Source of the DNA: a virus
Lineage: Duplodnaviria > Heunggongvirae > Uroviricota > Caudoviricetes
Virus record (IMG/VR): IMGVR_UViG_641522623_000002
DNA length: 37,589 bases
Strand: one strand, 5' to 3'
Made by a program: the position numbers and the translations under genes. Positions 2,621-35,573 of the stretch are shown here, one piece after another (positions within the stretch are counted from its first letter, which is position 1; each line of letters starts with the position of its first letter). The notes below the pieces were generated by a model. It was given only the letters and a program-made list of their open reading frames with translations, was not told the DNA's origin and did no database searches.

Positions 2621-2732
2621 AACTGAAGTTGCCCTGAAAATGAAATTTTTTTGCACAACCGCAGAACTTTTCCGCAGGGCATCAGTCTTAATTAGTGCCA
2701 CTGCTTTTCTTTGATGTCCCCATTTTGTGGAG

Positions 2733-2775
2733 CCCATCAACCCCGCCATTTCGGTTCAAGGTTGATGGGTTTTTT
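2733..2775 (+). terminator. Rho-independent terminator-like hairpin downstream of ybjL
   Basis: cccatcaacc (2733-2742) pairs with ggttgatggg (2760-2769), followed by TTTTTT (2770-2775); the loop is rather long (17 nt). Confidence 0.5.
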
Positions 2776-2855
2776 GTTGCCTGAAATTTAAGCTGTTTAA
2801 AATCATGATGTTAGAAGCACTGTTTTTTAACGATGGCGACAAAATGGCGGCAGCG

Positions 2856-3164: not shown

Positions 3165-4265
3165 TCATTCCATTTCGAAATCATCAATCCTCACTTCAAG
3201 CTCCAGACTGGTCGTAAAACCGTTATCCGGGCTGACGGTATGTGTCAGAGTCGTAATGGTCCATTCCGCATCATCTATCGGCGGTTTAAAGCCGCTGACC
3301 TTCACAGGCATTTCCGTGTAGAGATCTGCCCGACCTTCCGCCAGTTGTAGCGAGAATGACGCAACGCCGCGTTGCAGGCGTTCCCACTGCATTTTCGCTG
3401 CCCGTTCAGCGTTGCTCCGGTTGGCATAAGTGCGATTAAGTACCAGCACGTTTTCATCCGTACCCACCAGGTAATCGCCCTGCTTCGCTTCCGGCTCATT
3501 CTTCTGCTTCTTAGTTCTGCGCTTACGCTTCACCGTGGTACTTTCTTTCTTCGCAGGTTCGCGGGTATGCAACCAGCTGGCAATTACGCCCGTGTAGGCT
3601 CCGCGATCTGCCAGGGTAAAGCGGTGACTGTCGCCGTCCTTGCGTGTGATAGTGATCACTGGCAGTGGTTTACCAGTGGCGCTTTTGCCCTGCCCCTGCC
3701 GGATGAATAACAGATTGCCATTTTTCACCGACGCGATGGCACCGTACTGTCGCGCCAGCCGCATCAGAAAACTGCCGTCACTCTCATTAGTCTGGTCTAT
3801 ATGCTCCACGGGCTTATCCGACAGGTCTTTACCCAGTGCCATCTTCAGCTTGTGCCGCGCGGCTATTTCCTTCACCACTTCCCCGACGGTGGTCTTGTGC
3901 CACGACTTTTCACGACGGGTATTCAGCGTTTCCCGAAAATCAGCACTTCGCGCCCGGATAGTCAGGCGGTCCGGTGCGCCAGTGTGTTCAATCTCGTCCA
4001 CCGTGAATGCCCCTTTCGGGAAAAGCGGCTGCCCCTTCCAGCCCAGCGCCAGCGTAATGACCGCACCACGGCGCGGCAGCACGATTTTTCCGTCGGCGTC
4101 GTCCAGCTCCAGATCAAGCTGGTCTGCGTCAAAGCCCCGGTTATCCGTCAGCGTCAGCCCCATCAGGCGGTTGTCCAGCACAGTGGTGATATCCCTACCT
4201 TCAATACTGATGCTGAATGCCGGAGTTTTGTTGCCTTTGTTAAGCAGTTCAGAGCTGAAATTCAC
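3165..4265 (-). CDS. Tail protein gpD (late tail operon, terminal gene)
   Basis: 366 aa, position after U; LTLTDNRGFDADQLDLELDDADG motif as in P2 gpD; ATGA overlap with the U stop. Confidence 0.85.
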   Translation of the reverse strand: MNFSSELLNKGNKTPAFSISIEGRDITTVLDNRLMGLTLTDNRGFDADQLDLELDDADGKIVLPRRGAVITLALGWKGQPLFPKGAFTVDEIEHTGAPDRLTIRARSADFRETLNTRREKSWHKTTVGEVVKEIAARHKLKMALGKDLSDKPVEHIDQTNESDGSFLMRLARQYGAIASVKNGNLLFIRQGQGKSATGKPLPVITITRKDGDSHRFTLADRGAYTGVIASWLHTREPAKKESTTVKRKRRTKKQKNEPEAKQGDYLVGTDENVLVLNRTYANRSNAERAAKMQWERLQRGVASFSLQLAEGRADLYTEMPVKVSGFKPPIDDAEWTITTLTHTVSPDNGFTTSLELEVRIDDFEME

Positions 4266-10144: not shown

Positions 10145-10717
10145 TCAGGGCGATTCATTGTTCTCATTCGCCGGAAATTTTCTATAAATGGTAGAAACGC
10201 CCACATCAAAAATCAGTGCAATACGCTGTCTTGATTCTCCGGCCTCGAGTAAACGTCCAATCTGTGCCCACTGTTTGGTAGTCAACTTAGGACGGCGTCC
10301 ACCTACTCTGCCTTTAGCACGAGCTGCAGCCAGCCCTGCCCTGGTACGTTCAACTATCAGTTCGCGTTCCATTTCAGCCAGGGCACCCATGACATGAAAA
10401 AAGAAACGGCCCATTGGGGTACTGGTATCAATACTGTCAGTCAGACTTCTGAAATTCACGCCGCGCTGGCGCAACTCTTCTATCAGAGTAACAAGATGCC
10501 GCATACTGCGCCCCAACCTGTCCAGCTTCCAGACAACCAGTGTGTCACCTGCCGATAGTGTCCTGAGCAGCTTTTTCAGCCCCGGTCTGTCGGACTTGGT
10601 GCCACTGATTTTATCCTCAAAAATCCGCTCACATCCCGCGCAGTTCAGTGCATTACGTTGCAAATCGGTGTTCTGGTCATTTGTTGACACGCGTACATAG
10701 CCAATAAGCATGATCAT
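10145..10717 (-). CDS. Serine-recombinase DNA invertase (Gin/Cin/Pin/Hin family)
   Basis: 190 aa; N-terminal resolvase catalytic domain (GYVRVSTNDQ with the active-site Ser) and C-terminal HTH; sits immediately beside a crossover site. Confidence 0.9.
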   Translation of the reverse strand: MIMLIGYVRVSTNDQNTDLQRNALNCAGCERIFEDKISGTKSDRPGLKKLLRTLSAGDTLVVWKLDRLGRSMRHLVTLIEELRQRGVNFRSLTDSIDTSTPMGRFFFHVMGALAEMERELIVERTRAGLAAARAKGRVGGRRPKLTTKQWAQIGRLLEAGESRQRIALIFDVGVSTIYRKFPANENNESP

Positions 10718-10738
10718 CCCTCTGAATAAAAACCGGAG

Positions 10739-11272
10739 ATGATGCCAGTTAGCCGTAATCTCTGCATTTTCATAAACGTTGGTTTGGGAGAAGGCTCAGC
10801 ATTACCCGTTGGCGTGCCTGTTCCGTGGCCTTCCGCCACTCCGCCAACAGGCTGGCTGAAATGCAACGGTGCGGCTTTTTCTGCTGAAGAATACCCGGAA
10901 CTGGCAAAGGCTTACCCGACAAATAAATTACCTGATTTACGCGGTGAGTTTATTCGGGGCTGGGATGACGGGCGTGGAGTGGATAACGGAAGGGGATTAT
11001 TAACGCTTCAGGATGGTGCTATTGTCAGTCATAACCACTATTGGGGAATCTGGACTTCACGAACTAACGACCAGACTCTGGAAAGTTTTACAGGCACCAC
11101 GATTTTAAAACAAATCACGCCCCTGTCTCCGTCCATTGACTTCGATAATTACCCAATTCCCAACCCGGCTATTACAGAGGGTGGTGTTGTTGCGGCAACG
11201 ACTAAACCTGCAGGTGCGAATGAAACACGCCCACGAAATGTCGCTTTTAACTATATTGTGAGGGCTGCATAA
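10739..11272 (+). CDS. Alternative tail-fibre C-terminal segment (silent orientation, Sv'-like)
   Basis: ORF begins at the crossover site and shares the GLGE junction codons in frame with H; it would fuse to the H constant region after inversion. Confidence 0.7.
   Translation: MMPVSRNLCIFINVGLGEGSALPVGVPVPWPSATPPTGWLKCNGAAFSAEEYPELAKAYPTNKLPDLRGEFIRGWDDGRGVDNGRGLLTLQDGAIVSHNHYWGIWTSRTNDQTLESFTGTTILKQITPLSPSIDFDNYPIPNPAITEGGVVAATTKPAGANETRPRNVAFNYIVRAA
10767..10792. repeat. Invertase crossover site, left (ttttcataaacgttggtttgggagaa)
   Basis: Inverted copy of the site at 12622-12647; lies at codons ...FINVGLGE of the silent tail-fibre C-terminus ORF. Confidence 0.75.
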
Positions 11273-11874
11273 TGAATAACGCAGAATTAAACAGTGAATT
11301 AATTGCCACTATGGCAGGAGAAATTACTGTTTATAACTTTGATGTCATGAGTCGGGAATATATTTCAGCTTCAACTGAATATCTTGCTATTGGTGTCGGC
11401 ATTCCGGCATATTCCTGTTTAGATGCCCCAGGCACATACAAAGCTGGTTATGCAATCTGCCGATCTGCAGATTTTAACTCATGGGAATATGTACCAGACC
11501 ATCGCGGTGAAATCGTCTTTAGCACCGAAACAGGAGAATCAAAAGAAATCACAGCTCCGGGTGATTACCCTGATAATACAACCACTATCGCCCCGTTAAC
11601 GCCATACGATAAATGGGATGGTGAGAAATGGGTGACGGATACCGAAGCACAGCATAGCGCCGCAGTAGATGCAGCAGAAGCACAGCGCCAGTCACTGATT
11701 GATACTGCAATGGCTTCAATCAGTCTGATTCAGCTGAAATTGCAGGCCGGACGTAAACTGACGCAGGCAGAAACAACCCGCCTTAACGCTGTGCTGGATT
11801 ACATTGACGCGGTGACGGCAACAGATACCAGCACAGCGCCGGATGTCATCTGGCCTGAACTGCCGGAGGCGTAG
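11272..11874 (+). CDS. Tail-fibre assembly chaperone (alternative, U'-like)
   Basis: 200 aa immediately after the alternative fibre tip; conserved Tfa C-terminus (...LDYIDAV...WPELP). Confidence 0.75.
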   Translation: MNNAELNSELIATMAGEITVYNFDVMSREYISASTEYLAIGVGIPAYSCLDAPGTYKAGYAICRSADFNSWEYVPDHRGEIVFSTETGESKEITAPGDYPDNTTTIAPLTPYDKWDGEKWVTDTEAQHSAAVDAAEAQRQSLIDTAMASISLIQLKLQAGRKLTQAETTRLNAVLDYIDAVTATDTSTAPDVIWPELPEA

Positions 11875-12265
11875 GCCATTCAATATCTGGGGCACTGGAG
11901 GTATCCACCAGTTCCAGTGCGTCCAGGTAATCCAGCCACAAATTATATTGCGCCAGTTCCTCACCTTTCAGACGACCAATAGCGGCTTTACCAGGCCATT
12001 GCTTACTGTTCATGTATTCGTTGGCCTGTTCAATAAGTATACTTTTCATTCCCTCCGCTTCAGCTATTTCCTGTTCCTGTGTCTTCGCTGGATATTCAGT
12101 AAGTACAGGGTAGTTATCCGGGTTATTGATAATAATTTTCCCCGTACTCTGACCATTCATAAGTTCATAATAAAGAGCATCTTCAATATCGAAAGCATCA
12201 TCGGGAATATCGTTGTTGTTTTCAGAGAAAAATCCCTGAACAGATGGGGACCATTTCATTTTCAT
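11846..12265 (-). CDS. Tail-fibre assembly chaperone gpG/U (expressed orientation)
   Basis: 139 aa directly downstream of H; C-terminus ...[11 protein letters not shown]...WPTPP is typical of Tfa; converges on and overlaps the U'-like gene. Confidence 0.8.
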
Positions 12266-13683
12266 AATTTCCCAATTCCTAAAATGTGGACGTCATCAGC
12301 CTTACGGGCATTCCAGGTGACAATTACATCGGTAGAGTGACGATTAACTGAGATTGCGTATGCTTCGTTAGTCGAGCCAGAAACTTTTGTAGCAAACACA
12401 GCAAACAGGACACCAAATGACTGGGGCCATTTATAGCCTGACAGCTGATAATTACCATTATTCAGTGTTACAGCTTTGGCTGCTGCACTTGATGGAATCG
12501 TCAGCCACTGGAGTATCAACCCTCCTGGCAAAAGTTGTTTTCCGTAATAATCCCTCACCCCACTAAATGAAACCATGTCCGGTATCTGATTTTCCCCTGT
12601 GCCCACATCCCGTTTTGCCGCCTCTCCCAAACCAAGGTATGTGAGAAGACCAGCTACATCCTTTCCACTCAAATTGGTAAGCGTATTGTCCAGCGGTTGT
12701 TTACCTGACAGCGCATTAAGCATTGTCGTGGCAAAGTTCGGATCATTCCCCAGTGCCGCCGCCAGTTCGTTCAGTGTATCCAGTGCCGCAGGTGCAGAAC
12801 CCACCATTGCCGCAATCGCCGATTTCACAAATGCCGTGGTGGCAATCTGTGTATTGTTGACCGACTGCGCCGCCGTGGGGGCTGTTGGCGTTCCGGTGAG
12901 TGCCGGACTCGACAACGGTGCTTTTAGTGCCAGCGCATTGTTAATGGTGGTACTGAAATTCGGATCATTGTTAATGGCTGCGGCTATTTCTTTCAGCGTG
13001 TCCAGCGTGGCTGGCGCACCATTAATAAGGGCCGTCAGTGCCGCCTGTACAAACGCAGTGGTCGCAACCTGCGTGGTATTATTCCCCGCCGCTGGCGTTG
13101 GCGCTTTGGGGGTTCCGGTAAATGTCGGGCTGGCTTTTGGCGCGTACTGTGAATGCGGGTCCGGTGCGGCAAGATGTTTTGCCATCTGATCATCCGCGTA
13201 CACCTTCAGCTCCAGTGCCTTGTCATCCACATACTTGCGGGTTGCCAGCACTACAGCAGGGTCGATTTTCAGGGTGATATTGTCCGTGCTGCTGGTAATC
13301 AGCACCATGCGCACGGTCTGAGTGCGCCCGCTACCTTCAGCCAGTTGCGGCTTATAGCTTTCCGGGCAGTTGCCCACGGCAATCAATGCCCCGGACTCAT
13401 CAAACAAGCCCACTTCACGTATCCACCAACCGCCCTCGTTTTCAGGGATCACCTGTTCGGCAATAATCTGGCTGCTGTTCTGCGGGTCGATATAAAGCAT
13501 ATTCAGCGCAGCCCGGCGTTTCTCATTTACCAGTGCCGTCTGCTTTGCGTCCGGCGTTGGCAATACTCCACCGCCATCGCCCACCGCCATATGGGTAATT
13601 TTTAGCGGCACACCGAGCGCGGCGGCGCTGGCAAGTTTCGCCGCGCCAATATCCGTCAGCAGGGTATAAAATTTTGTGCTCAT
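12262..13683 (-). CDS. Tail fibre protein gpH (constant N-terminal region plus currently joined variable C-terminus)
   Basis: 473 aa; P2-H-like N-terminus; internal tandem repeat of about 70 aa; crossover site inside the gene at 12622-12647. Confidence 0.88.
12622..12647. repeat. Invertase crossover site, right (inside H)
   Basis: ctctcccaaaccaaggtatgtgagaa, the inverted partner of 10767-10792. Confidence 0.75.
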
Positions 13684-16233: not shown

Positions 16234-17745
16234 TTATTGCCTAAGTTTAGGCTTGATAATTCCTAGTGCATCCCACAAACCACAGTGTATTTCAAAATTC
16301 AACGTTGGGTCCATTTCTAAATCTTCATCATTAAATGACCACAAATAAACATCTCCGCCATCTGTTTTAGATCTCCTGAGTACATTCCCGATAGCACCGA
16401 CTTTAAATAAACAACTCAGTATTTTATTAAGCGTTAATGTACCATCTCCTAACTTCAATTCTTCAAATTTTTCCTTGATTAAATGTGGAGTGAAACCTCT
16501 TTTTTTTAATGAACGTAAAAGAGAAAAACTGTCATCTATTTCTGAATCACTTAAATGTCCCGCAAGCTCAGATCTAATTTCACGTAAAAGATAAGATGAG
16601 TATTTTTTAGAAATCTTTGTAAACATGGAACTTTCAAATCTTTCAGTATTTTCTCCATATTCATCTTGAATATAAGTTAGCATCCTAACGGCATCTCTTG
16701 GGCGACCTAGAGTTCTATGTAAAATATAAATAGAGCTATGCTCACCTGCAACTCTCTCAGTGAAAATTTTCCCGAACAAATTAGAACCATTTAAATCATT
16801 ATAATAATCAGTGGAGTTTTTGATCTTAAAAGCAATCATATCAAAAATCTCAGAATCACTTGCTCGTTCTCCAGCAGAACACCAATCAAGTGTAACAGAG
16901 TTATCTTCAATGATTTTATTAATATTCGGCGATGAAAAAGTATTTATTATATCATGACGAATAACTGCACCAATTTTAGCATCTATTTTATTTTGCATTA
17001 GAGTTTTATTAATTGACACAACAGCATTTAAAAAACTTATCATTGCATTTTTATATTCAACTGTTGCATCAAACTTATCATCTAACTCATCATAAAATAC
17101 ATATATTTTTTTATTACTCTCTTTTAGCATGTCAACAATAAAACACTGCAAAGATTCCATACATTCCAAATAATTCTTTTTTGTTTCTTTTGTTTTCTCG
17201 ACCTCACCATCTTTTGCTTTGGCTTCACCACGTAATACTGGGAATCTAAATCCGATACCAACCTCACCCGACGCTTGGTACTCCCTAGTTATTTCAACTG
17301 TTTGCTCAGGCCTTAACTCGCCCGCGACATGGCCAAAAGAACGTAAAAAACTTTCCAAATGAACTATTTTATCCTCACTAAATCCTTTTTTATTACTTAC
17401 AATATTCTTAGCAAGATTGACCAATATCATCCACTTGAAAATTGGTACATATTTTGTGGAAGACACATCCTGCCCCTGAAAGTGAGTAAGTTCATGAAAA
17501 ACAAAATCTTTTAATGATTCCACAACTGCAATATAATTATTTTTTCGCTTGGCGTTACAGTAGACATTAACAAGCAATGTCTTACCCGTCCCCTTCCTGC
17601 CAATTACGAGCATTTTATTTTTTCTATCAAGTTTACTTAATGAATTATTTATATCATAAAAATATTTCGAGTAATTATCGAGAAATAATACCTCATTCTC
17701 TCCATAAACCTCACCAAATTCAAAATCACCAATTTTGGGGCGCAT
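16234..17745 (-). CDS. AT-rich cargo gene: P-loop NTPase of unassigned family (candidate anti-phage defence protein)
   Basis: 503 aa; Walker A GRKGTGKT (aa 49-56, encoded about 17578-17601); Walker-B-like IYVFYDELDD; GRPRD sensor/arginine-finger-like motif; codon usage and base composition are visibly AT-rich compared with the flanking S and V genes; own terminator. Confidence 0.75.
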   Translation of the reverse strand: MRPKIGDFEFGEVYGENEVLFLDNYSKYFYDINNSLSKLDRKNKMLVIGRKGTGKTLLVNVYCNAKRKNNYIAVVESLKDFVFHELTHFQGQDVSSTKYVPIFKWMILVNLAKNIVSNKKGFSEDKIVHLESFLRSFGHVAGELRPEQTVEITREYQASGEVGIGFRFPVLRGEAKAKDGEVEKTKETKKNYLECMESLQCFIVDMLKESNKKIYVFYDELDDKFDATVEYKNAMISFLNAVVSINKTLMQNKIDAKIGAVIRHDIINTFSSPNINKIIEDNSVTLDWCSAGERASDSEIFDMIAFKIKNSTDYYNDLNGSNLFGKIFTERVAGEHSSIYILHRTLGRPRDAVRMLTYIQDEYGENTERFESSMFTKISKKYSSYLLREIRSELAGHLSDSEIDDSFSLLRSLKKRGFTPHLIKEKFEELKLGDGTLTLNKILSCLFKVGAIGNVLRRSKTDGGDVYLWSFNDEDLEMDPTLNFEIHCGLWDALGIIKPKLRQ

Positions 17746-26268: not shown

Positions 26269-26586
26269 TTATATACCACATACAAAATTGATCTTAACGC
26301 TTTTATCAACAACAAGCAGAGAAGTGCCAACAGACTTAATAAATCCCAGTTCATACTCTTCTGAATGCGTCATTGTAATAATATGAACAGGAACAAATAA
26401 ATCAAGCTCCCGCAGCTTTCGCTTCAATAATAAACCATCGACACAATCACCTATCACAAGCATATCAATATCATTTGCATCGCAAAAACTCTTTAATGCT
26501 GACCCAAATACATATACATCCACCATATATAAACTATGATGGATAATAACATCACAGATCGATTCAATCGTATGTTTAAAATTCAC
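26269..26586 (-). CDS. Minimal nucleotidyltransferase (Pol-beta superfamily, MNT-like), third gene of the cargo operon
   Basis: 105 aa; GS-x9-DxD motif (VYVFGSALKSFCDANDIDMLVIG); 1-nt overlap with the upstream gene; AT-rich. Confidence 0.7.
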   Translation of the reverse strand: MNFKHTIESICDVIIHHSLYMVDVYVFGSALKSFCDANDIDMLVIGDCVDGLLLKRKLRELDLFVPVHIITMTHSEEYELGFIKSVGTSLLVVDKSVKINFVCGI

Positions 26587-27245
26587 TACCGTGAAATTCT
26601 TCGTAATAAATCACCCAACTTGTAAAGCTCCACCCCGATACTTTGAGCAGCCTCTTTTGCCTGAGTCGTCAATCGTCCATTAGGATTGGAGGAAAAAACA
26701 ACATCACAATTGCCATGCAACCCTATCGCATCTCTTACAGAACCCGCTGTCATATCATAATCATTCGCAGCGATAATAACTAAGTCCGCCAAGCCACGTC
26801 TTTTAAGTCTATATTTTTTGTTGGTTTCTCGCTCTACAGAGCTTACATGTGAATGTTGATTGAACACTCTATTTATAAACAAATGCTCTTTATCAAGATG
26901 CTCAAGCGGATTATTAGCTCTTAAGGAAGATGCAATATGCCCAAATGAACCCACTCCTATTTTCTTTTGTTCTAGTAATCTCATTGCATCACCAGAGATA
27001 AATTCAACACCTCCCTTGACTGATAGAAAATCAATTTTTTTATTGTCTAGGTATTCATTTATCTCAGGACATGTTATCCGGCCAGTATTGATTGCCCCGA
27101 TCAAATAGGTGTCACCCTGTGTAGTATTAATCACTAAAGTACCATCATCTATCACCTCTATATTTTCGACACATTTATTTTCTTGTAATTTTCCTGCCAT
27201 CCATGAAATATAGCCTTCACTCGCATTTATGCTCATTGGATTCAT
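26586..27245 (-). CDS. Hypothetical protein, middle gene of the cargo operon (possible HEPN-like Rx4H motif)
   Basis: 219 aa; translationally coupled on both sides; contains RVFNQH; no confident family assignment from sequence alone. Confidence 0.6.
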   Translation of the reverse strand: MNPMSINASEGYISWMAGKLQENKCVENIEVIDDGTLVINTTQGDTYLIGAINTGRITCPEINEYLDNKKIDFLSVKGGVEFISGDAMRLLEQKKIGVGSFGHIASSLRANNPLEHLDKEHLFINRVFNQHSHVSSVERETNKKYRLKRRGLADLVIIAANDYDMTAGSVRDAIGLHGNCDVVFSSNPNGRLTTQAKEAAQSIGVELYKLGDLLRRISR

Positions 27246-27937
27246 CCTATAAATAGTTCAGATGCAGCTTCTGGAAACCTACTACCATTAGCATCGGTTA
27301 AGCCCAAATGTTTTGATTCAAAGTCATCTATATGAACACAAAGCTTTGAAAAAACATTCTTCTCATCTTCACTCATGAGGTGATAGTTTTGTTCAACCAG
27401 TCGCTGTACTTTTCTATTGTTGGGTAAGATATGAGATTGTACTTTTCTTAACCATACTTCTGCATTTGGATTTTCAGGGTCAACGCTGTTCTCTTGGGTT
27501 GGTCCATATGTTACAAAAATGGTATTGTTTTCTCTGAAGTATTTTTCTAACTCCTGTCTAACAGATTCTCGATTGTCATATGTTTTAACACCAAAGGTTG
27601 CATTTATTTTATCAATATGGCCGTTTTTCCAAGAACGGATAATTTCATCAGTAAAATGTTCCTCTGCCTTATCAATTGTCGTATGGCAATTAGCACATAG
27701 AAGAATAATGTTGTCAAAATGACCTCTCTGCTCATCAGTTAGATCAGCATTGGTTCTAGGTCCATTATCAATGGCACTAAAAATGTGAGCAAGTTCTCCA
27801 ATTGTTATATTTTTGTCGCCAGCATCAACAAACAAAGGTTGCAAGCATTGTGGATTTTGGCAAAAGCCACCTGAGCTGGCAAAAAGCCGTCTAACTGTAT
27901 TAGCGTTTGGAGAAGCTTTTCCCCTACTGCAAGCCAT
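27242..27937 (-). CDS. HNH-motif nuclease-like protein, first gene of the cargo operon
   Basis: 231 aa; CQNPQC...GELAHI...NIILLCANCHTTID (Cys pair, His, Asn, C-x2-CH) typical of HNH/His-Me finger nucleases; AAGG ribosome-binding site upstream. Confidence 0.7.
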   Translation of the reverse strand: MACSRGKASPNANTVRRLFASSGGFCQNPQCLQPLFVDAGDKNITIGELAHIFSAIDNGPRTNADLTDEQRGHFDNIILLCANCHTTIDKAEEHFTDEIIRSWKNGHIDKINATFGVKTYDNRESVRQELEKYFRENNTIFVTYGPTQENSVDPENPNAEVWLRKVQSHILPNNRKVQRLVEQNYHLMSEDEKNVFSKLCVHIDDFESKHLGLTDANGSRFPEAASELFIG

Positions 27938-28217: not shown

Positions 28218-28895
28218 CTAGAACGTGACAGCCTTGTCAAAGCCAGAAATAATTGTATAAGAAATAGACGAGTTATCAGCCTTGTTCACTTTGAACTTGG
28301 CACCTTTGTAAGCGATAACATCACTTCCCTTAGAATCTACAGAAAAATCTGTTGTAAATGCTGCACGAGCCATATCGTTTGCAAATTCACGATAGGTGAA
28401 CTTCATTACACCGCCTGCATTTCCATTGTATTCGATAGTCTTAACCAATGAATTACTCACTCGACACAGCCCATCAGGAACACGTTTGATAGAAATTTCT
28501 GATGCAGTATAAGAAGTGCCATTTGGCGGTGATATCTCATTTTTTGCAGCATCGTAACTAACATAATCAACATAGTTACCGATTTGCCCATAGAGATTTT
28601 TTAACGCAACAGCTTGAGGGTTATGATAATTGCGGTAAATTCCATTCCCCTCACTGCAATATGTACCAGCAGCGATAGAAGACAATGCACCATTAGCCGC
28701 ACCAAGTTCTAGTACGTCCGTTTTAAATCCAGTAGCAGATGTGATAATGGGATCGCCCATGTAGGCGGTAGCACTTTGCCCAATAGCTGGCTTCACCACT
28801 TCAATAGCAGTGATATTTCGGTTAGAAGCATGTGGCACGCAACCAGTTAGGATTACAGCAAGAGATATTGGTAACGCTACATTATTAATTTTCAT
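28218..28895 (-). CDS. AT-rich cargo gene: predicted lipoprotein of unknown function
   Basis: Signal peptide MKINNVALPISLAVILTGC with lipobox LTGC; about 225 aa from this Met (the ORF track extends to 28949); AT-rich; between the Tum operon and cos. Confidence 0.65.
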   Translation of the reverse strand: MKINNVALPISLAVILTGCVPHASNRNITAIEVVKPAIGQSATAYMGDPIITSATGFKTDVLELGAANGALSSIAAGTYCSEGNGIYRNYHNPQAVALKNLYGQIGNYVDYVSYDAAKNEISPPNGTSYTASEISIKRVPDGLCRVSNSLVKTIEYNGNAGGVMKFTYREFANDMARAAFTTDFSVDSKGSDVIAYKGAKFKVNKADNSSISYTIISGFDKAVTF

Positions 28896-29008
28896 TTTTA
28901 GCCTATTATTCTTTTCTTGACAAAAAACAAGGCGATATCTGATTGACATCGCCTCTCACTCATATGTAACCCTTTTTGATTAGTAAAAACAAGCGTCTAT
29001 TGACAAAA

Positions 29009-29593: not shown

Positions 29594-31966
29594 TTAATAC
29601 AGGTTCCGCCACTTATCATCTTCCCGCAAACGTTGGTTCCGATAGAAGATACGCAGGCCTGCTCCTGACGGAATACTGCCGCCGCGAAGCAGTAAATCGA
29701 CCTCTTTCTCGCTGCCATCAAATCCCCTGGACTTCAGTTCATACACGAGCTGCTGTCGCTGATGATCTGTAATTCGCTGTTTGTAGTCTTTACGCCGTTT
29801 CGGTTTCACCAGGCGTAACCTTGCTGCCAGTTCCCGGCGCTCTTTTTTGTTCATACTGTGCAGGTAATCGTGCAACTCCTTGTCATCCATGCGGGTGATA
29901 TCCGTTCTGGTATCTCCATCAGCTGATTTGTCTTTCGCTTGTTGGTACAAATTTTCAGCAAGGGGACAGTTATTGCCACGAGTCCAAGGGGTGCAAGCGC
30001 CCTGGTCGGCTGCCGCCTCCTGAACATCAACGGCCTTACGAACCATTTTCCACTTCACGGCATGAGTGCAGATCTTGCCCTCTGCAATAGGTGACCAGAT
30101 GCCATAAATACGAATGCCGTGATCGCCATAGGCGGTCGGCTCTTCGTTGATTTCATAAGCGGTTCTGATGAGGTGATATTTGCGGGGAACCAGTACGCCG
30201 CCCTGCTTCATGATGTAGGTGGCAAAACAACCAGCATCAGCAGCAGCCAGGATGGCATCAAGGTGCGGGTTATCCAGTACCGGCGCACCTGCTTTTTTGT
30301 CCCCCTGTTGCCTTGCCGCCTGACCAGCCAGCAATCGCAGTTCACGGTAAGCCTGACGCCCCGGAATGCCAAAGAAGCGGAATTGCTGAACACGATGCAG
30401 AGACGCCCAGGCATTAACGTATTCAGCATTATCACGCAGGGATTTCCCCGTTTCCTTGCTGATCTCGCCAGCCAGACCACGCCCGTCAATGTTCTTACTG
30501 ATGTATTTCGCGATGTAGCTTGTTGGCGTACCTTTGCGCGGGTTAATCAACTCAGACTTAAAGCGCGGCCCAGTGTTATTGCCCAGTTCCTCGCGGTCTT
30601 CACGGATGGCAAACTTACGCAGTAATGCAGTGATGGCGCGGCGGTCTTTTTTGCGCATAAAACACAACAGGTGCCAGTGAACTGTACCGTCATGATGCGG
30701 CTCAGCCACCCGCACGCCATACCACCGCAATCCGGCTTTGTGCATCGCCTTACGAAATGCAGCAAACATGCCGACCAGATAATCACTGCTTTGTCTTACC
30801 GTCGCATTTGTCCAAGTTGGGTTGGGCCTGCCATTATTTAGCGTGGAATGGAAACGTGACGGACAGGTGATGGTGTAGAAAACGGCGCAGTCACCGCGCA
30901 TTTCCGCGATAAGCTCCAGGCCTTTAACACAGGCCATCATCTCATTGCGGCGATGCGCAGGGTTGCTGCTGCTGGCGTTTACCACATCCTCCATGTCCAG
31001 CGTGTCGCCGTCTTCGTTCACCAGTTCATGAGAACGAAAAAACTCCAGCGACTTACGGCGCTGCTCACGTTTATGCATCACGGCTTCATAGCTGACATAG
31101 GGAGATGCTTTTTTGCTGACCAGGCAGACAGCACGCAACTGCTCTTCCCGCCATTCGCAACGCATCTTCCATAATTTCCGGTACCACCAGTCAGCGCACA
31201 ACATACGCGCCAGCGAACCCGGAATGAGTTCATAGGGCACGGGTTTACGGCGGTTTCTTTTCCGGCGGAGTTGCTCAAACGCAGGCGGGATGACATCCAG
31301 ACGTAGGGTTTCCGCTGCCACCTTTTCCCATGTCTTGCGGATTTCTTCTGGCTTAACGTCATCGGTGACATACAAATCGCCACAAGCTGCATCAAGGCAC
31401 ATGCTCATATGCGCAGCTACCAGGGTGGACAGGCGTTTCACCTGATCCTGACTCATTTCAGGCAGGATCAGCAGGCCGTCCAGCCCTTCATGGCTTGCCA
31501 TAAAGCGAAAAGAAGTGGATAGCTGACAGTCGCGTACATGCTCCAGCCGTTCCAGACATGGCTTAATCGTCTCACGCAAATAGCGGGAATAAGCCTTTGG
31601 CCTGCCCAGGCTGCTGAAGTATTCAATACGTTGCATCAGCGGCTTGCTGATATGGGAAGGCTGGGCATTGACGTCCGCCAGAATGACCATATCTGGATTA
31701 AAACGCTGCTGCTCATGCGCCAGCTTTGCCCGACTAATGAGCTTATCCTGCTCCATTTCGCGCTGGACAGGATCACGGGATTCATTAAAGAAATAACGCT
31801 CCCAGACCTGATCACTCAGTGCTTCGCGGCGCAGCTGTTCCTGCTCGTTATCGGCAGCGTACAGAGCGATCAGGTTTGAAAGCGCAGAAACTGAAGATTG
31901 CTCTTCTGTCTCTACGTAAGGATTGATTGCTTTTTTCTCAGCATTCCAGGAATAGCTGTAGTTCAT
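29594..31966 (-). CDS. Replication initiation protein gpA (rolling-circle nickase)
   Basis: Large ORF in the P2 gene A position. Start chosen at the Met whose ATG overlaps the upstream stop (TAATG) and has a GGAG ribosome-binding site; the ORF track extends to 32017. Confidence 0.8.
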
Positions 31967-32796
31967 TACGCAATCTCCAGTTCGAGCTGTGAAGGCTGCA
32001 AACCATTCGACAGCCAATCAGAAACTGAAGGTGGGCGAACAGCTTCAATTGCACCTTTTAAAATTGCGCAACGGTTTTTCAGAATGACAGCTTTCAGCTC
32101 CTTTTCCGTCAGATTGCGCGAATATTCAGCCTCCTGAATAGCCCGCGTCAGCTCAGGATATTTGCTATTAAATTTGGGGACATTGCAGGCAAGATTTGTA
32201 CTGTCGGCAGTCGCCAGTGGGTAATTTCCCAACACACGACCGTCAAGCATGCGCAAACCATGAACAGCTGTTTTGAAATTGTGTCGGCAATAAATTGCTT
32301 CAAAAGCGTCCTGCATACGACGATGCCAGTGCGCAGTTCTGATAGCCGCATATTCACCAGACGATCCAAAGCAGACACGAGGCCATTCACGACATAGCTC
32401 GATAAGCCGATCGATTGACTCGTGCAGATGCCAGACGGGAGTTGCCTTCCCGTAGAACATTTTCGGAACTTCGTTTATCAGGGCATCATTGTCACGTTCA
32501 CCTCCGTCCACAACATCAGGAATGACAAAAAAAGCGACCTTAGGATGGTGGTAATAGTTCAGGAGCCATTTATAAAAATCACTCCAGTTAATTTTTAGCC
32601 CACGCACCCATGCAGAAAATGCGCCGTTATCAATGCCGACGACCTGAGCGTGCTGAATGGACGCCGCAATCTGATCTGGTCGTACATAGGAGACGAAAGC
32701 GCCAGCTCCGCTCACCGCAATACGATGAACGTCGCCAGCACTTCCCCAGACAGGCGTCCCATGGAAATGATGAATTCCGTGGTGCATTTCTTTCAC
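31966..32796 (-). CDS. Hypothetical protein, translationally coupled between the Dam methylase and gene A
   Basis: 276 aa; His-rich N-terminus; no family recognised from sequence alone. Confidence 0.6.
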
Positions 32797-33647
32797 ACTT
32801 GCACCCCGAAAATAACAGTAGAGTCACGTCCCCTACTAAAATCGGCACTAAACCAATTAGCAGATTTAGTGGCAATCATCTCTGTTGCAAATTTTCCCTC
32901 CCCCGCTGCAACGCCGATGCTGCGTTTCGCCCTGATGTAGTGGTGAGTGAAATTACGATAAAGGGACCGGGTCAAAGACGTGTTACTGTTAGAAACAATG
33001 ACCGGATGTCCTTCTGATGACCGATGTTCAAGAATGGATGCCAGGTGATACTGATCATCTTCAGTGAAACCATCAGTGTGATAGCCGGAAAACGTACCGT
33101 CATAAGGCGGATCGCAATACACCACATCCCCCACCTTCAACATCGCCAGCGTTTCATCAAAGCTGGCGCAGATAAACGTTGCCCACTGGGCTTTCTCTGC
33201 AAATGCGCGAATTTCTTTTTCAGGGAAATACGGATTTTTATAATTACCGTAGGGAATGTTGAAATGTCCGCTCTTGTTATAGCGACATAAACCACGGTAA
33301 CCGTGACGATTGAGATACAGGAAATATACCGCTTTCATGAAATCAGTAATTTCAGTGGAGTAATTAAACTCCTGCCTTATGTTGTAATAAGCTACCTCCC
33401 TGTTTGCTTCCTCAAATAAAGCTCTGGCACGAGATATAAACGCCTCACAATCAGCAGCAACCTTTTTATAGAGGTTGATTAAATCAGGATTAATATCCGC
33501 AACAAGATAGCTGGGGTAATCCGTCTCCATCATCACTGCACAGGAACCCGCGAAAGGTTCAACCAGTCGCGGGCCAGCAGGAAGATGCTTTTTCAGTTCG
33601 GACATTATGGCGGTTTTATTTCCTGCCCATTTCAGGATGGTGCTCAT
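32793..33647 (-). CDS. DNA N6-adenine methyltransferase (Dam-like)
   Basis: DPPY catalytic motif ([10 protein letters not shown]) and an AdoMet-binding N-terminus (EPFAGSCAV); start set at [11 protein letters not shown] (ATGA overlap with the upstream gene). Confidence 0.8.
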
Positions 33648-33871
33648 ACAGCACCTCCGTTGTAATGTTTGCCTTTCAGCTCTGCGATTTCCTGACAGGT
33701 AATGCAAAGCTGCACACCCGGAATGGCACGGCGGCGTGCTGGCGGAATTGGCGCTTCACACTCAACGCAAAGCACGCGGGACACGCCCGGCGTTTTGGCA
33801 CGGGCAGCACGGATATGGCGTTGGCGTTCTTCTTCAACGCGCTGCTGTACGAGATCCATTGCATCAGCCAT
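33644..33871 (-). CDS. TraR/DksA-family C4 zinc-finger protein
   Basis: 75 aa with CVEC-x17-CITC. Confidence 0.7.
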   Translation of the reverse strand: MADAMDLVQQRVEEERQRHIRAARAKTPGVSRVLCVECEAPIPPARRRAIPGVQLCITCQEIAELKGKHYNGGAV

Positions 33872-35448: not shown

Positions 35449-35573
35449 GATGCAACATTCCTCGTTTAATGATGATTAATCAGGACGAATACGGATCGTT
35501 TGTATTTTGTGAACACCATAAACATACGATCGCACAGTGAAATCGTCAAGATAAAAGTTCACTTGGAGTGACC
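35449..35573. promoter_or_regulatory. Lysogeny/lysis switch region (pR/pL and operators)
   Basis: 125-bp intergenic region between the divergent apl-like and cI-like genes; contains repeated atcgt/acgat elements. Confidence 0.55.

Follow-up and report, generated by a model that had tools for sequence, protein, structure and literature searches.

What does a protein of 276 residues, encoded between a Dam-type methylase gene and the replication gene A, do for a temperate phage? The question is raised by the early operon of a P2/186-like prophage in the window analysed here, the whole stretch of 37,589 nucleotides that makes up IMG/VR record IMGVR_UViG_641522623_000002. The gene is 100% identical to its counterpart in E. 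coli ATCC 8739, and its product is labelled "hypothetical protein" in RefSeq and in all source names seen. An earlier note, made from the letters of the sequence alone, described a TraR/DksA zinc-finger gene, a DPPY adenine methylase gene, and the 276-residue gene as three translationally coupled early genes upstream of A; it called the last protein His-rich and of no recognisable family, and guessed at a second DNA-modification or anti-restriction activity in partnership with the methylase. The protein is likely to be a singleton DpdA, a DNA guanine transglycosylase resembling tRNA-guanine transglycosylase (TGT), that inserts a host-derived 7-deazaguanine into DNA at a low level.

The structure and profile search that the earlier note had proposed for the protein was run and found the DpdA/TGT family. 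The protein matches phrog_887 ("queuine tRNA-ribosyltransferase") with an E value of 2.4e-96; the DpdA of phage CAjan falls in the same PHROG (E 8.2e-96), and deletion of CAjan dpdA abolishes deoxy-preQ0 (dPreQ0; preQ0 is 7-cyano-7-deazaguanine) in CAjan DNA (PMC6884629). When profiles were compared with hhalign, a singleton profile built from 63 diverse relatives aligned over 174 columns with a profile of Queuovirinae (CAjan-type) DpdA (98.8% probability, E 9e-17), pairing D56, H123, G144, H179, and D198-S199 with their counterparts. The predicted structure (mean predicted local distance difference test score, 89) is a (beta/alpha)8 TIM barrel closest to TGT-family structures, and of its 30 BFVD fold matches (E<=0.001), those with a descriptive name are, with one exception, phage "queuine tRNA-ribosyltransferase". 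The family comprises 4313 database homologues at E<1e-5, which argues that the open reading frame (ORF) is a real gene, and forms 903 clusters at 50% identity. The protein is indeed His-rich (15 His, or 5.4% of residues, with six in the first 12), but PHROGs, profile-profile comparison, and fold comparison all give it a family; the same three lines of evidence agree with the guess of a second DNA-modification activity, in the form of a DpdA-family 7-deazaguanine DNA transglycosylase.

The putative catalytic residues are conserved throughout the family. In 64 diverse representatives, 18-60% identical to the window protein, Asp56 (IDNGAFS), His123, His179, and Asp198-Ser199 (ADSTN) are invariant, while Asp94 and Gly144 are nearly so; Asp56 and Asp198 are invariant in 66 close homologues as well, and Asp198 lies 19 residues beyond the invariant His179. 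The catalytic aspartates of TGT, D102 and D280, are the counterparts of D95 and D256 in DpdA. In the Salmonella DpdA, the role of general acid/base falls to D95 and that of nucleophile to D256 (PMC10164549), and the order of D56, D94, H123, G144, and D198 in the window protein parallels that of D95, D130, H181, G206, and D256 in the Salmonella enzyme.

The DpdA family, including an orthologue of the present protein in Salmonella phage SEN1, is already in the literature (PMC8306585, PMC6884629); literature searches found no later paper on the function of P2-like or singleton DpdAs. DpdA is encoded alone in 76 phages, and one cluster of these proteins is specific to phages of gamma-proteobacteria ("group 3" of Hutinet 2019, PMC6884629). 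Phage 7-11 carries the deoxynucleoside of 7-amido-7-deazaguanine (ADG; deoxynucleoside, dADG) at ~0.02% of G, and mycobacteriophage Orion, also a singleton-DpdA phage, has no modification (PMC6884629). The DpdA of phage MED16 matches TGT (2ASH) at 99.2% in HHpred, and in DNA from MED16 virions dADG stands at ~0.13% of G while dPreQ0 is nearly absent; the closest viral relatives of the enzyme are SEN1 gp38 and SW9 gp39 of Salmonella P2-like phages, and neither MED16 nor SEN1/SW9 has preQ0 genes (PMC8306585). SEN1 gp38 shares 75% identity with the window protein, MED16 DpdA 55%, and the 7-11 protein 34-40%. A further dpdA homologue lies in the early-left accessory region of the P22-like phage BTP1, with ral and abc.

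Several results weigh against this reading or restrict it. The 276-residue protein has no match in scans of Pfam, NCBIfam, and PADLOC; searches of PDB sequences by phmmer and by two profile hmmsearches returned noise only; and hhalign gave the diverse family profile a probability of 0.3% against the single sequence of E. coli Tgt. This silence explains both the earlier verdict on family membership and the label "hypothetical protein". The Pfam TGT model (PF01702) has no match at E<=0.1 in the window protein or in the 64 family representatives, CAjan DpdA among them; because the validated CAjan enzyme is equally invisible to it, the missing HMMER-level link to TGT reflects divergence of the family and not non-membership, and the link needs HHpred-type or fold methods. 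The correspondence of D56, D94, H123, and D198 with D95, D130, H181, and D256 of bacterial DpdA is likewise a putative one, drawn from order and approximate spacing rather than from superposition. A further restriction concerns the role of the modification: in MED16, the closest characterised phage, dADG gave the DNA no detectable protection against any restriction enzyme in the test (PMC8306585). The proposed anti-restriction activity is no more than plausible.

The Zn2+ motif CxCxxC...H of TGT and bacterial DpdA does not occur in the 276-residue sequence. In the alignment it is not visible in CAjan DpdA either, and Cap10, a protein of type IV CBASS (cyclic-oligonucleotide-based antiphage signalling system), is reported in the Cap10 paper to be without a Zn site; the site is therefore not defining for the phage DpdA branch. 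It is also uncertain which base is inserted. In TGTs the loop past strand 6 reads the 7-substituent. The putative base-recognition residues D94, H123, and G144 occur in the right order in the window protein, but its loop has G-S-S-G rather than G-G-M/L: the sequence is FGSSGEY in the window protein, SEN1, and MED16, as against IGGMVGR in CAjan, IGCMGKH in 7-11, and IGSCGDY in BTP1. This difference from the GGMVG of preQ0-inserting DpdAs is what makes the identity of the base uncertain. The GSSG loop was considered as a signature of dADG-producing phages and rejected, since the dADG phage 7-11 has GCMG and BTP1 has GSCG; it is a weak lead.

The surroundings of dpdA bear on whether the protein works with the methylase encoded next to it. 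The gene lies in a 983-bp cassette that consists of the last ~26 codons of dam, dpdA itself, and the first ~26 codons of A. In a blastn comparison with the prophage of E. coli B (ATCC 11303), identity is 95-97% up to 31888 and from 32872 and there is no match between these points, where 198 bp in E. coli B stand in place of the 983 bp of the window; in the E. coli B prophage, dam abuts A, and the TraR, DUF2732, DUF5347, and CII proteins are identical to those of the window. Along the dam-traR segment, 56 phage records (mostly of Klebsiella, with some of Salmonella and E. coli) match at 94-95% identity, and in all of them homology breaks off ~80-90 nucleotides before dam ends (window 32872-32881); none spans the 276-residue gene, and in Klebsiella phage KP12 dam overlaps A directly, with no dpdA. 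DpdA without Dam is found in SEN1 and in five further P2-like loci. Seven of ten homologous loci are of the P2/186 type and have dpdA directly upstream of A, with dam adjoining it in only one of the seven; at one non-P2 locus, a dam lies downstream at a distance. In 5426 complete E. coli genomes, this type of dam occurs in 1237 and dpdA in 102; ~92% of the Dam-carrying genomes are without DpdA, and dpdA is at least 99% conserved in 101 genomes.

Since each gene occurs without the other across phages and E. coli genomes, Dam and DpdA are independent modules; Dam was rejected as a conserved partner on its distribution among phages, loci, and genomes, and the partnership suggested in the earlier note finds no support in the genome counts, in KP12, in E. 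coli B, or in SEN1. The interval from traR to A is a variable slot for stand-alone DNA-modification genes in P2/186-like phages. In SEN1 the place of dam directly upstream of dpdA is taken by a gene for a 92-residue DUF5405 protein (3692-3970). A conserved small partner gene in this position was also considered and rejected, because in other loci the gaps are too small for a gene. In a 421-residue protein from a Logan assembly (P0011), residues ~44-276 of DpdA follow, at 100% identity, an N-terminal Dam domain (PF02086), through either an in-frame deletion that fuses dam and dpdA or an assembly artefact.

The methylase is an ordinary, independent orphan enzyme. That it is a DPPY adenine methylase, as had been noted, is confirmed by PF02086 (E 1e-75; 255 bits against a cutoff of 22), by TIGR00571 (316 bits against 115), and by the DPPY motif (motif IV) at residues 179-182. 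Its best PADLOC model is an orphan methyltransferase (E 2e-109), and the annotated features that flank dam (traR on one side, dpdA or A on the other) include no nuclease gene. Aligned over 255 positions, it shares 47.8% identity with E. coli Dam (2G1P; E 1e-72). In the E. coli enzyme, K9, Y119, N120, L122, R124, P134, and Y138 contact GATC (PMC4417163); six of the seven are kept in the phage protein and N120 is replaced by Arg. With the DPPY motif and the orphan model, these residues suggest that the phage Dam is probably GATC-specific. The number of GATC sites in the prophage (108 observed, 135 expected from base composition) is not informative on this point. The phage enzyme shares the motifs of the D12-class fold, including DPPY, with E. 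coli Dam and with phage orphan Dams (T4 Dam, DpnIIA), none of which has a partner endonuclease; it differs from E. coli Dam in the Arg at position 120 and in a last ~26 residues specific to the dpdA cassette, and it scores below the cutoff of the NCBIfam equivalog for host Dam (287 against 441 bits).

TraR is the usual regulator of P2-like phages that acts in the secondary channel of RNA polymerase. The 75-residue protein of the window is a TraR/DksA-type zinc finger, as had been recognised from the sequence: it matches PF01258 (E 4e-11), TIGR02419 above its cutoff (67 against 59.7 bits), and phrog_54 (E 2e-30), and the four cysteines of the finger are in place (C35, C38, C56, and C59; CxxC-17-CxxC). 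It is identical to the protein of the E. coli B prophage (WP_000752619.1), and in its C4 finger and its size it resembles TraR of the F plasmid and other TraR-like DksA-family fingers of phages, beyond which it shows nothing notable.

The three genes lie distally in the early lytic operon (33871-31966, minus strand, as read from the ORF listing and directly from the sequence), whose order is apl/cox, cII, fil, DUF5347, DUF2732, traR-like, dam, dpdA, A (Table 1). Every gene junction from DUF2732 to A has an overlap of start and stop codons, as expected from the translational coupling described in the earlier note: TGATG at 33871 between DUF2732 and traR, ATGA between traR and dam, GTGA at 32796-32793 between dam and dpdA, and TAATG at 31966 between dpdA and A. 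Dam really begins with the ATG at 33647, whereas the mechanical ORF listing places its start at a TTG farther upstream (33707); for dpdA, RefSeq uses an ATG at 32787, five nucleotides past the dam stop, which yields a protein of 273 residues. The promoter candidate upstream of apl/cox is the sole promoter-like site on the minus strand between 35700 and 29400 (6.3 kb), and no excess of terminator-like sites was seen across the same region; both are consistent with one early transcript that reads into A, so that traR, dam, and dpdA should be silent in the lysogen and expressed together with the replication protein. An Rfam scan of the region found no RNA family.

Table 1. Positions of the early-operon genes, candidate catalytic codons, cassette, and promoter candidate in the window
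Feature	Position	Strand	Basis
TraR/DksA-family C4 zinc-finger protein, 75 residues	33644..33871	-	PF01258, TIGR02419, phrog_54, four Cys
Orphan Dam-family N6-adenine DNA methyltransferase, 284 residues, probably GATC-specific	32793..33647	-	PF02086, TIGR00571, alignment with E. coli Dam
Likely singleton DpdA-family (TGT-like) DNA guanine transglycosylase, 276 residues from GTG 32796	31966..32796	-	phrog_887, hhalign
Asp56 codon (I-D-N-G-A-F-S), putative general acid/base	32629..32631	-	Invariance; aligns with D of LDSGAFSA in CAjan DpdA
Asp198 codon (A-D-S-T-N), putative nucleophile	32203..32205	-	Invariant with Ser199; aligns with C-D-S-S in CAjan DpdA
Mosaic cassette, 983 bp	31889..32871		blastn against E. 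coli B (ATCC 11303) prophage
Replication initiation endonuclease gpA, the next coupled gene downstream	29594..31966	-	PF05840 E 1e-127; ATG 31966 overlaps dpdA stop
Candidate sigma-70-like early promoter, TTGACG-17-TATGTT, 5' of apl/cox	35521..35549	-	Consensus match alone

The coordinates of the window correspond one-to-one to those of the ATCC 8739 record, small differences aside, and the prophage has ybjL and the gene for the small RNA RybB as its neighbours. The RybB gene (2700-2778, plus strand; Rfam RF00110, 105 bits) is ~85 nucleotides from the ogr end of the prophage, which thus appears to be integrated at or beside the 3' end of rybB. In the assembly of an AgNO3-adapted ATCC 8739 strain (NZ_CP022959.1), the genes for lysozyme, holin, tail protein X, and virion morphogenesis are annotated as frameshifted or partial; some of these frameshifts may be assembly errors or adaptive decay, since at least one ORF that is split there (503 residues, described below) is intact in the window.

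If the 276-residue protein is a DpdA, it would be a TIM-barrel enzyme of the TGT superfamily and would act on double-stranded DNA once this has been replicated. On the model of TGT and bacterial DpdA, Asp198 would attack C1' of the target deoxyguanosine and guanine would be expelled, leaving enzyme and DNA covalently joined in an intermediate, with Asp56 as general acid/base; a free 7-deazaguanine base would then be inserted. E. coli has the queuosine pathway, and the base would be taken from it as preQ0 or as an intermediate close to preQ0, for instance ADG. No folE, queD, queE, or queC and no amidotransferase gene is present among the 54 annotated features of the prophage or in the ten homologous loci, and it is this lack of preQ0-pathway genes that points to a host-derived base. 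Either preQ0 would be inserted and then hydrated, or ADG would itself be inserted. The product would be a small number of sequence-specific dADG or dPreQ0 marks per genome and not bulk replacement, to judge by MED16 and 7-11: with 17,606 G:C pairs in the prophage part of the window, the level of MED16 corresponds to ~23 modified sites and that of 7-11 to ~3.5, so that roughly 3 to 25 sites per phage genome may be expected. Expression would be limited to lytic growth, just before or during the gpA-driven replication that makes DNA for packaging, and Dam would act separately, probably on GATC. The most economical idea for the purpose of the marks would be escape from a site-specific host nuclease.

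Other explanations can be offered for the gene. An obligate two-component system of Dam and the 276-residue protein, in which deazaguanine might for example be inserted at or beside methylated GATC, would account for the GTGA overlap and the cotranscription of the two genes, for the adjacent dam of all top E. coli dpdA matches, and for similar neighbours elsewhere (dam and dpdA are adjacent again in an Atlantibacter locus, a Dam homologue adjoins dpdA in Rosenbergiella, and in MED16 a few genes separate DpdA from a Dam-type methylase). We regard it as very unlikely, because DpdA occurs without Dam in SEN1 and the five P2-like loci and Dam without DpdA in KP12, E. coli B, and most Dam-carrying genomes, because overlaps link all genes of the operon and not dam and dpdA specifically, and because singleton DpdAs, by definition, stand alone in their 76 phages (PMC6884629). 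There is slightly less still to be said for a TGT-like enzyme that modifies host or phage tRNA, at position 34 or elsewhere, and so reprograms translation in lytic growth: MED16 and 7-11, whose DNA carries dADG, have no TGT-like gene other than the homologue of the present one (PMC8306585, PMC6884629), the validated CAjan DpdA acts on DNA, and the host already has Tgt. The protein also lacks the CxCxxC...H motif and, at 276 residues against the 375 of E. coli Tgt, has no counterpart of the C-terminal region of TGT.

Equally improbable is a Cap10-like enzyme that is directed at proteins or binds a nucleobase conjugate, perhaps as a counter to deazaguanine-based immunity (type IV CBASS, QatABCD) instead of a DNA modifier; Cap10 (PDB 9NTN) is 10-11% identical to the window protein, binds a protein N-terminus, and belongs to a defence operon with CD-NTase and Cap9, to which the prophage has nothing alike. 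A gene in decay, or a passenger without catalysis, that brings about no modification in E. coli would suit the unmodified DNA of Orion (PMC6884629) and the very low modification of 7-11. This reading is given as little weight, because the ORF is intact and highly conserved in E. coli, D56, H123, H179, D198, and S199 are invariant in a family of 903 clusters, and the Orion host, unlike E. coli, has no preQ0 pathway (PMC6884629). A less remote alternative, though still unlikely, is that singleton DpdAs of gamma-proteobacterial phages insert ADG, an intermediate of QueC, directly at few sites, or have a target other than DNA, and serve a role beyond general anti-restriction. Direct insertion of ADG would fit the GSSG loop, the finding of only the amide dADG in MED16 and 7-11, and the nearest structural neighbour of the protein, which is Cap10, a binder of 7-amido-deazaguanine; were this alternative true, the phage might mimic the self marks of Dpd type, or evade or trigger immunity that senses deazaguanine.

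A singleton DpdA that inserts a host-derived base into DNA remains the reading that we favour. The identification leaves knowledge of the family as it was before, and it allows a "hypothetical protein" found in thousands of database entries, and in 102 of the 5426 complete genomes of E. coli, to be re-annotated as a DpdA-family DNA transglycosylase. Singleton DpdAs pose the questions of which base is inserted, at which sites, and to what end, and of how dADG can form in the absence of DpdC. The prophage of ATCC 8739, a tractable laboratory strain in wide use, and its natural near-isogenic counterpart in E. coli B, which is without the 983-bp cassette, offer a convenient system for these questions and are suited to testing whether low-level deazaguanine marks matter for temperate phages.

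Elsewhere in the window, between the portal gene and the replication-side genes lies a three-gene cluster of low GC content (26269-27937, minus strand; 0.36-0.39) for proteins of 105 residues, with weak similarity to nucleotidyltransferases, 219 residues, and 231 residues, the last with an N-terminal HNH-type nuclease domain that matches models of a CBASS/SAVED effector, SduA, and candidate PDC-M68A at E values down to 2e-29; the cluster looks like anti-phage defence cargo in a P2 hotspot. An intact ORF of 503 residues between baseplate gene V and the tail-completion genes (16234-17745, minus strand; GC content 0.33-0.34) is probably a moron or defence gene; it has a weak P-loop signal, RefSeq gives a portion the name "P-loop ATPase, Sll1717 family", and a frameshift interrupts the ORF in the assembly of the AgNO3-adapted strain. 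At 10151-12271, a serine recombinase gene stands beside tail-fibre and tail-fibre-assembly genes in both orientations, and the segment looks like an invertible host-range segment of the Cin/Gin type. An ORF of 243 residues upstream of dinI (28218-28949, minus strand), annotated as hypothetical, has no match in Pfam or PADLOC.

Among known systems, the bacterial DpdA of the Salmonella Montevideo Dpd restriction-modification island (PDB 7UI4) has 413 residues and contains four insertions as well as a Zn site; it depends on the ATPase DpdB, and DpdC makes the amide (PMC10164549). None of these partners is present in the window, and PADLOC gave the 276-residue protein no match to any model. The DpdA1 proteins of Queuovirinae (CAjan, 9g) share with the window protein a PHROG and the succession of D-x-G-A-F-S, H, G-rich loop, H, and D-S motifs, and differ from it in sequence (~17-22% identity), in the GGMVG loop, and in the C-terminal region; these phages also encode their own pathway for preQ0 (or G+) and replace 25-32% of G. 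The closest likeness is to the singleton DpdAs of the "DpdA/TGT_1" cluster of the MED16 paper, namely SEN1 gp38 and SW9 gp39, gp38 of Pantoea phage MED16, and gp032 of Salmonella phage 7-11, which are of the same length class and, as in the present prophage, belong to phages without preQ0 genes in hosts that have the queuosine pathway; SEN1 and MED16 share the FGSSGEY loop with the window protein. SEN1, a 186-like phage, resembles the prophage also in having dpdA directly upstream of gene A; unlike SEN1, which has DUF5405 at this place, the prophage carries dpdA beside dam, as a cassette set into a dam-A backbone.

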